Origin: Chrysomallon squamiferum
Taxonomy: Eukaryota; Animalia; Mollusca
DNA: 64,000 nt
Reading direction: 5' to 3'
Assembly: GCA_012295275.1 (NCBI GenBank)
Contig: CM022665.1
Coordinates: 8,680,001 to 8,744,000, forward strand
Every line of letters begins with the position of its first letter. The stretch's first letter is position 1. The notes under the pieces were generated by a model. That model did not search any database and was not told the DNA's origin. It saw nothing but the letters and a program-made list of their open reading frames with translations. Shown piece after piece: positions 52,205 to 57,794 of this stretch. The translations under genes and the position numbers were made by a program.

Positions 52205-55200
52205 CTGAAATTAAAAACAATATTCCAAGTAACTTATAAAATTATATCAACATAAACAACAAAAATTAAAAATATATGAACACTATTCAAAACATCCCTG
52301 TACAAATATTTTCATTAATCTGAAGCAGGATAAAAGTTATTGAATAATTTTTATTTCATGCTAGTGACGAAATGTTAGTATTTTACCAAAACAAAAGAAG
52401 AAAAATTAATCCAAAGTTGTAAATTGTTTCATAAATTTCTCATATTGTCATGTTTTACCAAAAAGACCACTCTGCACATGATATATTTATTTACTGGTCC
52501 TAAGTTAGTTTGCAGCATCTCATAAAGACCAAGTTACAAACCTGCTTCAGTACAGGTATTCCTCAAATCTGCACCATTAAAGTCTTCAGATAACTTGACA
52601 ACTGCTTCCCAGTCTGAAATCAATCTCATGAAGTTAACAACTTTCTTTAAAAAACATTACTATGAAGGAAAATCAAATGGACAATTACAGAACGATGAAA
52701 AAAAAAAAAAAAAAAAAATTAAACAATTTAACCTTCATACAAATTTAAAAAGAACCACTACAAATACCATAAATTTTCACCTAACAAAACTATATCTCTA
52801 AATCACATCAAATGCATATCATAACTGGCAAATCAAATTGTGCCCAGGAAATGGATTTTTATTTTTTATTTTTTAAACAAATATTGTTTATTACTTACCA
52901 ATTTCACCATGTTTGGCTATGGGGGAAGCATGAATTTTCAAGATTTCTAATCTGGCTTGCTCATTTGGTAATGGAATTTCTATTAAAAAAAAGAAAAAAG
53001 GACATGCTGAGAAGGTAATAACAGGATTTATTCAAGTTACAATATTTTTAGCTATGTAAAGTTTATAAACAGCAGTAAAGTCTTGTTTCTGTATTCTTAC
53101 CCACTGGACTGGACATAGTAACATAAAAACTTATTTAGATTCCTCACTAAAATATTTTCTGTCACAAATGTTAAGATTTTATTATTATGAACTGACCTAT
53201 CTTCCTATCCAATCTGCCTGGTCTTAACAAGGCTGGATCCAATGTATCAGGTCTGTTTGTGGCCATTATTATCTTCACTTGTCCCAGAGCATCAAAACCA
53301 TCCATCTGGTTCAGCAGCTACAACATATTTCATTATAAAGGTTTAATAAATTAAAAATTTTATCATCCTGTTTCTGGTGGAAATCTGTAGCATGACTATT
53401 AAATTTTATAAACTCAAAATACCAAATTTGTCATTTCATTTATTGTTTTGTGGTCAGATACATAATTTTTAAAAATGTCTGACATCTTGTTCTTTATTAT
53501 TGAAACTAATTAATAGTATCAAGAAATAATTTTAACTTGTTTCTAAATTTAGGATTAGACCACACTCAGTTTAAAATGAAATAAAAATAGTTTACCTCCA
53601 TCAATGTTCGCTGAATCTCTCTGTCAGCTGAAGTTCCCTCAGAAAACCTTCTGCCACCTAAGAAAAATAATAAATTTTATTTCATAAAGTGAAGTTAAAT
53701 AAACATAAAAAGGTGGCATTCCTTTATAATTAAAATGACAAATAAAAAATAATAACACACAAATATCAGATTTTGGTTTAAAAATATTTTAATTTTGTCA
53801 TCAGAATTAAAAACAAAAACACAAATGGAAAGTAAAACAAACCAATAGCATCAATCTCATCCATGAAAATAATACATGGAGCATGATCTCTAGCAAAGGC
53901 AAACATCTCCCTGATAAGTCTGGCACTTTCACCAATGTATTTATCCACTATAGCACTTGAAACGACCTGAAATTATTTACAACTTTTAATGTTAAAACTA
54001 TTTTCTACCTAAGGGTTTTAAAAAAAAAACCAGTTCTATATATATATATATATATATATGTCAATTCCTTTAATTTTAAGAGGATCATTTCCCACTTTGC
54101 AATAACACTGTGCTCTGAGTAGAATACATTGTACAATAATTAATGGTTTCTTCTGCTGTATGAAATGTATATAAACCAGAATGTATTATATTACTGTTGT
54201 ACATTTTACTAAAAATAAATAGAAGGGATAATACTTTCATGGAAAGGAAAAAAAAACCATATGGCATTATATCAGAATACAGAAGATAATAAAATATTTT
54301 AAAGATTTAACTGTAGCTAAATCTCTTAAGAAACCATGGCTTTTTGTTCTGATAATCCAAAAACCTTTTTATGTGCATTTACTTTTTCCAAGAAAGTGCT
54401 GTTTAAATCATGCATTAAAATAAAAAGCATAATCAAATTTAGTCTTGCCTTCAAGTAATTACAATCTAACTGACTAGCAACCGCTCGAGCTAGCAAAGTT
54501 TTCCCTGTTCCAGGGGGTCCATACAGCAAACAGCCTTTTGGTGGAGTGATGCCCACACGTATAAACAACTCTGGATTCAACAGGGGCAACTCTATAACCT
54601 GAAAATATTTTATAACTTACTTACAGAGACTATGAAGCAACATTTTAATAGTTATGGCCTAATCTTGTCATTTTAATTATGATGTCCTCAGATCTCATAA
54701 TCACTGTCATAAGCTCCCACCAACAGTGTGAATGAAGAACCAGAAACAGAAGTGGAAGAAAAAGATTTAAGGAAACAAAAGAAACAAAGATTAAGTCAGA
54801 AATTAGATCAAGAAATAAGAACAGAAGAAGTTCTCATTCAAACACTGTAACTAGCCTCATATATTTGTTAGCATCACTGGACATTTTACTCAAAATAAAA
54901 TTATTAGGTGTTAATACATGTTATTATATTTTTTCAAAATATTTTCTAAAACATTATAAAAATCATTAAATGTATTCTCTTATATTCAAATATTTATTAA
55001 AAAAAAAAGCCATTTCAATACAATTTCATATATTTATTTCACTAATACTTAATAGAACATAATTATCTGTGGTCTGTCAGAACAGTTGGTTTGAATAGTA
55101 CAGTCATTTTAAATTTCATTAAGTTTTAAGAAAAAAGTTCAACATTCACAAAATGTTATTTTGTATTTCCACCAAACAATAAAGTCAAATGCTAAGTTTG

Positions 55201-57794: not shown

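Follow-up and report, generated by a model that had tools for sequence, protein, structure and literature searches.

According to Vitali and Kiss (2019; PMC6601510), methylation of C34 (Cm34) in human tRNA-Met needs both SNORD97 and SCARNA97 (SNORD133) and protects the tRNA from angiogenin. SCARNA97 is described there as a 216-nt RNA from intron 10 of LARP4 with a 93-nt pyrimidine-rich Cajal-body signal, the loop being required for Cajal-body targeting. No growth defect was found in that work; growth and codon effects are reported in a later study (PMC10576143). Invertebrate and plant homologues have already been predicted, one gene per species, and the text accompanying Fig. S3C of PMC6601510 has no mollusc among them. 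A mollusc or PSMC6-hosted member of the family did not appear in the literature that we searched, most of it available as titles and abstract openings, and the available portions of PMC11014333, PMC6984369, PMC7038984, PMC7671301, and PMC10557570 do not name an invertebrate SNORD97 gene.

We analyzed a 64,000-nt stretch of the Chrysomallon squamiferum genome (contig CM022665.1, 8,680,001 to 8,744,000), hereafter the window, in which the proteasome gene PSMC6 holds three box C/D guides in its introns. These are predicted to direct Cm34 of elongator tRNA-Met, an explanation to which, taken as a whole, we assign a probability of about 0.88. The features are as follows.

52089..57794, minus strand: PSMC6/Rpt4 (26S proteasome ATPase subunit 10B); start codon at 57794, first six exons mapped, later exons as translated segments only
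57179-57679 (intron 1), 56251-56628 (intron 3), and 55916-56129 (intron 4), minus strand: other PSMC6 introns, from spliced RNA contigs
56669..57098, minus strand: PSMC6 intron 2, 430 nt, holding copy C; spliced joint in all three RNA runs
54599..55800, minus strand: PSMC6 intron 5, 1202 nt, GT..AG, holding copies B and A
56738..56977, minus strand: copy C, 240-nt box C/D RNA, the sole copy in intron 2 (box C 56963-56969; D' 56948-56951; C' 56761-56767; guide 56749-56759; box D 56745-56748)
55292..55486, minus strand: copy B, 195 nt, upstream member in intron 5 (box C 55474-55480; D' 55460-55463; C' 55313-55319; guide 55301-55311; box D 55297-55300)
54682..54884, minus strand: copy A, 203 nt, downstream member in intron 5 (deviant box C 54871-54877; D' 54857-54860; C' 54704-54710; guide 54692-54702; box D 54688-54691)
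54885..55291, minus strand: spacer between B and A, 407 nt, AT-rich (22% GC), exon-free, crossed by RNA contigs, sequence unconstrained

To define the host gene, contigs of three RNA runs from one study (a fourth run, X4, was left out) and run X5 were aligned to 54620-57800, the 3' half of PSMC6 lying outside this segment. Spliced contigs in all three RNA runs defined introns 1 to 4, while the boundary of intron 5 comes from a loose contig end that joins the next exon at 54598; all introns are GT..AG. Joined together, the six exons form a stop-free frame of 207 codons. Human 26S subunit 10B was the top match of two exons (E 2e-15 and 1e-21); for the ATPase exon, two-domain VCP/p97 proteins came top by summed score, with 10B as the best single-domain match. 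The exons flanking intron 5 are consecutive in human 10B, corresponding to residues 110-147 and 148-197. A first-pass annotation of this DNA had proposed three related elements of 195-240 nt on the sense strand of PSMC6, and the spliced contigs and 10B matches agree with it on the host; copy number, orientation, coordinates, and lengths also came out as annotated. That B and A share a single intron was absent from it.

Elsewhere in the window, a gene for ASPP (apoptosis-stimulating of p53) that includes ankyrin and SH3 exons lies at 43107-49095 on the plus strand, tail to tail with PSMC6; over an open stretch of 714 codons it shares 70% identity with Gigantopelta aegis, abalones and limpets coming next, in line with a gastropod source. 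Upstream of PSMC6 and on the same strand are exons of a PEP-utilising (PEP synthase/PPDK-like) enzyme (60862-63879, minus strand; Pfam PF00391). At 9900-10650, TG/TA-rich units form a tandem array with several open frames, and microsatellites are numerous throughout the window.

The guide 11-mer GATTATGAGAT has exactly three sites on the minus strand of the window, each with CTGA immediately 3', and the invariant element that had been described directly before box D is thus present in every copy. Terminal stems of 6 bp (A), 5 bp (B), and 7 bp (C) and a CTGA box D likewise stand for each copy as annotated, but the canonical box C does not: GTGATGA is found in B and C, whereas A reads GTGATGC and is the only one of 26 aligned sequences without the last A of the box. 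Between copies, the 5' cores are 80-87% identical (43-47 of 54 positions) and the 3' cores 91-93% (53-55 of 58-59), and the middles 55-60% (47-52 of 85-90). The distance between box D and the 3' splice site is 76 nt for C, 89 nt for A, and 698 nt for B; the two shorter spacings are typical of vertebrate C/D RNAs. A candidate fourth copy, a 10-mer at 5480-5489 that has no box D and scores 10.7 bits, was rejected, and the window contains no other.

A comparison with the SCARNA97 probe given in PMC6601510 revealed that guide and box D are identical at 15 of 15 bases. The complementary target, GTCTCATAATC, is invariant in all 20 tRNA-Met rows seen in Fig. S4 of that paper (human, Drosophila, Ciona, Arabidopsis, and other plants), and the corresponding stretch of elongator tRNA-Met in the host animal is predicted to be UCUCAUAAUC. 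Guide and tRNA would form 10 Watson-Crick pairs plus one G-U pair adjoining box D, covering tRNA positions 30-40, and the fifth base before box D (D+5) is a G facing C34 in all three copies. Both the assignment to the SNORD97/SCARNA97 family and the anticodon arm of elongator tRNA-Met as target, as proposed in the first-pass annotation, are upheld by these matches, to the extent of the published rows and probe at hand. As a separate observation, box D is also complementary, with one bulged base, to the four bases that precede the target in the vertebrate tRNA-Met rows of Fig. S4; this is absent from the insect and plant rows there and is likely a coincidence.

Recognition by the Rfam SNORD97 model, to which the same annotation had looked, did not materialize. 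No Rfam family matched at cut-off over the window, and a permissive scan of 52-58 kb did not find SNORD97 and returned matches at chance level only, among them snoU83B and mir-544, which were rejected. In a single-copy scan, made with copy B only, Rfam SNORD97 (RF01291) gave an end-to-end alignment of 17.5 bits (E 0.9) against a cut-off of 45; this cut-off is a threshold of a model built on the short vertebrate form and not a functional definition. The window likewise contains no tRNA genes or tRNA-like folds. By guide, target, and layout, the copies are new mollusc members of the SNORD97/SCARNA97 family with a predicted function, below the Rfam cut-off.

Inspection of the internal regions disclosed an element ATGA (D') located 10-11 nt 3' of box C in all three copies, which forms with a C' box (ATGACAG or ATGAAAG) a kink-turn of a 4-bp stem and a 3-nt bulge. 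From C' to box D there are 12 nt in each copy, and the guide occupies this spacer. Between D' and C' lies a hairpin with 12 further pairs common to all three copies, and the middles are rich in pyrimidines (A, 97 nt, 79%; B, 91 nt, 88%; C, 131 nt, 82%) relative to the surrounding introns (51%). The kink-turn and the 91-131 nt pyrimidine loop are features beyond those listed in the first-pass annotation. Across 23 named pairs in three copies, 67 of 69 cells hold standard pairs, compared with 30-48% when the arms are slid. Two-sided compensatory changes among the three copies were found at none of the 23 pairs, and unconstrained folding did not recover the whole structure model (z of -0.12, -0.40, and -0.28 against shuffles). 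The D' spacers differ from copy to copy, and a complement of the tRNA D-arm, as on the D' side of the Rfam consensus, occurs in none of the three, while 5 of 23 relatives have one. The D' guide, 10-11 nt long and different in each copy, is likely idle.

Set beside SCARNA97, the copies share the 15-nt guide and box D, the intronic sense position, a similar length (195-240 versus 216 nt), a similar loop (91-131 versus 93 nt), and a diverged D' guide, the latter stated for D133 in PMC10576143. They differ in having PSMC6 as host and in forming three tandem copies, two of them within one intron. From length and pyrimidine loop, they resemble SCARNA97 in build, and localization to Cajal bodies is predicted on this likeness. 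Human SNORD97, from intron 13 of EIF4G2, has the same D guide and target, and its Rfam model is the one that aligns end to end with copy B. In contrast, this model spans 142 positions and its consensus D'-side GACGCG, with a predicted G22 target, is absent from all three copies. The genes predicted for Drosophila, silkworm, bee, Ciona, Arabidopsis, and rape have the same invariant guide (PMC6601510); they are one per species, whereas the mollusc has three and pairs also occur in the metagenome loci L067 and L071.

A metagenome scan with a 17-base guide-plus-D seed returned 83 loci with 86 sites; agreement of these relatives in guide and box D is circular, as they were chosen by the seed. An upstream box C with a closing stem of at least 4 bp was present at 38 of the 86 sites (35 loci, many of them close kin), compared with 2.1% in shuffled sequence. 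Of the 38 sites that passed, 23 entered the alignments; the other 15, which were near-duplicates or close kin, were dropped (L020, L029, L036, L040, L049, L051, L062, L064, L068, the second copy of L071, L072 twice, L075, L077, and L081). A D'/3-nt bulge/C' arrangement with a stem of at least 3 bp was seen in 18 of 26 sequences, namely the three copies and 15 of the 23 relatives (null 2.2%), and the kink-turn stems of the relatives have lineage-specific yet complementary sequences. Rfam SNORD97 aligned end to end to 9 of 20 scanned loci at 29.8-37.2 bits, under the cut-off of 45. With a model built from the 23 relatives only, copies A, B, and C reached 45-50 bits and no other place in the window exceeded 14.4 bits; under this same model all four seed-only control loci scored 16-20 bits.

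Pfam matches placed the relatives in or beside genes for RPL13, RRP12, a CHD1-like protein, NAC, a CCT chaperonin, a DEAD-box helicase, a translation GTPase, and neurobeachin, giving at least eight host genes other than PSMC6. None of the 83 loci matched PSMC6 segments, in a collection where molluscs may be absent. L071 has two copies in separate RRP12 introns, and L067 (2998-3834, minus strand) has two copies 359 nt apart in one neurobeachin intron; the exons on either side of this intron align to profile positions 95-156 and 151-208. With many unrelated hosts and with the pairs in L067 and L071, the family is labile in both host and copy number. Neither the PSMC6 host nor the copy number is special, because relatives occupy at least eight other hosts and some are paired, and PSMC6 probably serves simply as a housekeeping host of convenience. 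Hence, of the expanded three-copy version in a different host gene that had been suggested, the three copies in PSMC6 stand, but the attached idea of co-expression with the proteasome reduces to ordinary host use, and pairs occur elsewhere.

Several relatives show further variation. The RRP12-intron copies of L071/L072, L057, and L044 lie beside other C/D snoRNAs (weak SNORD27, U61, and SNORD49 matches). Ten loci (L010, L019, L029, L030, L036, L040, L049, L051, L064, and L075) of one AT-rich lineage carry a short form of 153-188 nt, located just upstream of an RPL13 reading frame and lacking a marked pyrimidine loop. The middles of L005 (2998-3181) and L017 (390-583, minus strand) are 83-87% pyrimidine, and both miss Rfam SNORD97 at E 1. 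We take the host of L005 and L017 to be a fish-like LARP4 from peptide motifs (Pfam gave none) and that of L066 and L068 to be eRF3, also from peptide motifs (Pfam GTP_EFTU).

The RNA evidence consists of assembled contigs from one study, from which ends, strand, and level are not readable. Copy C has its own contigs in all three runs (56746-56942, 56746-56912, and 56746-56920), and their confinement to the copy hints at a stable RNA form. Contig depth, a poor measure of level, was 648-1905 over C and 37-84 over A and B. Run X5, of unrecorded library type, is likely DNA of another individual, because its depth is flat near 60 across introns and spliced joints are missing. It differs from the window by 28 substitutions and 5 indels, all within 2066 nt of other intron and none in exons. 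The copies, 638 nt in total, have none of these changes (P about 5e-4, or 1e-4 with indels), while the test for each copy separately is weak (P 0.04-0.07); the 407-nt B-A spacer carries 8 substitutions and 3 indels. X5 depth over the copies is 61-65, the single-copy value, and reaches 118.6 over the 41-nt end common to A and C. This shared end, at twice the single-copy depth as expected of two copies, argues that the element is not a high-copy repeat.

Copy C alone could be functional and A and B decaying duplicates (snoRNA pseudogenes), in keeping with the sole deviant box C among 26 sequences in A, the shortest stem and the 698-nt distance from box D to the 3' splice site in B, and the gap in contig depth. 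We consider this unlikely: the middles have diverged to 55-60% identity, yet the guide, the boxes, the kink-turn stem, and both arms of the hairpin have been retained, a pattern that needs long-term selection on each copy, and X5 has no change in A or B where 5.4 would be expected for both together. Less probable still is that the real target is an rRNA, an snRNA, or another tRNA, or that the RNAs act as chaperones without methylation. Human D97 and D133 do base-pair with additional tRNAs, Leu-CAA among them (PMC10576143), but the human RNAs whose guidance of Cm34 was shown by knockout and rescue (PMC6601510) have the identical 11-nt guide, and the D+5 register is exact. The dispersed-repeat origin that the first-pass annotation had weighed, for instance a tRNA-derived SINE with a chance antisense anticodon arm, is barely conceivable and largely refuted. 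By construction, ~15 nt of the plus strand look like the anticodon arm of tRNA-Met, and the genome is repeat-rich; against this, the window has no tRNA-like fold, the three copies in 64 kb are all intronic and in sense orientation, X5 depth is that of single-copy DNA, and the complete C, D', C', D layout also occurs in distant eukaryotes.

A different question is what intron 5 yields, and here an addition to the three-guide reading, not a replacement, is possible, though we lean against it. If trimming halted at the 5' end of B and the 3' end of A, a stable 805-nt RNA of the sno-lncRNA type would result, with a guide RNP at each end and outer ends that may form a terminal C/D motif. B and A lie in one intron with no exon between them, and two snoRNAs per intron are the stated prerequisite of sno-lncRNAs (PMC4234469 and PMC11028025). 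The known examples (PWS locus, SLERT, RPL13A region) share this arrangement and an unspliced bridge of ~400 nt; they differ in being mammalian, with a proposal for flies (PMC5932544), whereas here the snoRNAs are two tRNA guides and the hint of a joined RNA comes from contigs. The spacer is bridged in all three runs by contigs 54689-55329, 54689-55440, and 54689-55314 (depths 37, 83, and 51), one of which runs from A to within 46 nt of the 5' end of B. Introns 3 and 4, which the spliced contigs skip, have uncovered bins, and this argues against DNA carry-over. The outer ends are C-like, in that the 5' end of B with the 3' end of A makes a 7-bp stem with a perfect box C, whereas the inner ends have drifted (GTGATGC as box C of A, 5-bp stem of B). 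This asymmetry amounts, however, to three or four bases, and the D', C', hairpin, and stem of A itself are unchanged in X5. Moreover, the contigs of this single study carry no ends, strand, or level, their depth is a mean that would fit a spacer depth of 2 as well as one of 16-33, and the spacer varies freely and has no evident job in its sequence. Intronic snoRNA clusters of flies yield monomers. Such clusters are known from PMC3089462.

A cryptic exon between B and A was rejected, as no joint into the spacer occurs in the three RNA runs. Among the contigs listed, RNA cover in intron 5 does not extend beyond 55521 or below ~54689, an observation not counted as evidence. The L067 pair is a second candidate for a joined form. 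A bolder combined proposal, which we hold to be doubtful, is that intron 5 gives rise to an 805-nt mollusc sno-lncRNA with box C of B and box D of A as termini and decaying inner ends, and that the pyrimidine-loop form is widespread and likely ancestral in animals, the short nucleolar SNORD97 being derived.

Returning to the three guides directing Cm34, release, core-protein assembly, and C34 methylation can be outlined by analogy with box C/D biology, starting from the observed position, boxes, guide, register, transcription of the stretch, and constraint. After splicing and debranching of the introns, exonucleases would trim the RNA to its protein-bound ends. The 15.5K protein would bind the terminal C/D and internal C'/D' kink-turns, and NOP56/58 and fibrillarin would assemble on them. 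The pyrimidine loop, carried on the hairpin between D' and C', likely acts as a Cajal-body signal of the SCARNA97 type. The D guide would then pair with positions 30-40 of tRNA-Met, and fibrillarin would methylate the base opposite D+5, C34. Copy C is likely the main working copy, while B and A likely give a joined B-spacer-A intermediate, beside or in place of the monomers. Angiogenin is, to our knowledge, vertebrate-specific.

These results extend predicted RNA-guided methylation of the tRNA wobble base to molluscs with expression and constraint data, where earlier work, as far as its available text goes, offered sequence predictions only (insects, a tunicate, and plants). The picture of one gene per invertebrate is too simple, since the family hops between hosts, and the current Rfam model misses its non-vertebrate members. 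The three natural variants of the pyrimidine loop provide material for defining the Cajal-body signal. If true, the joined form of B and A would rank among the rare sno-lncRNAs outside mammals.
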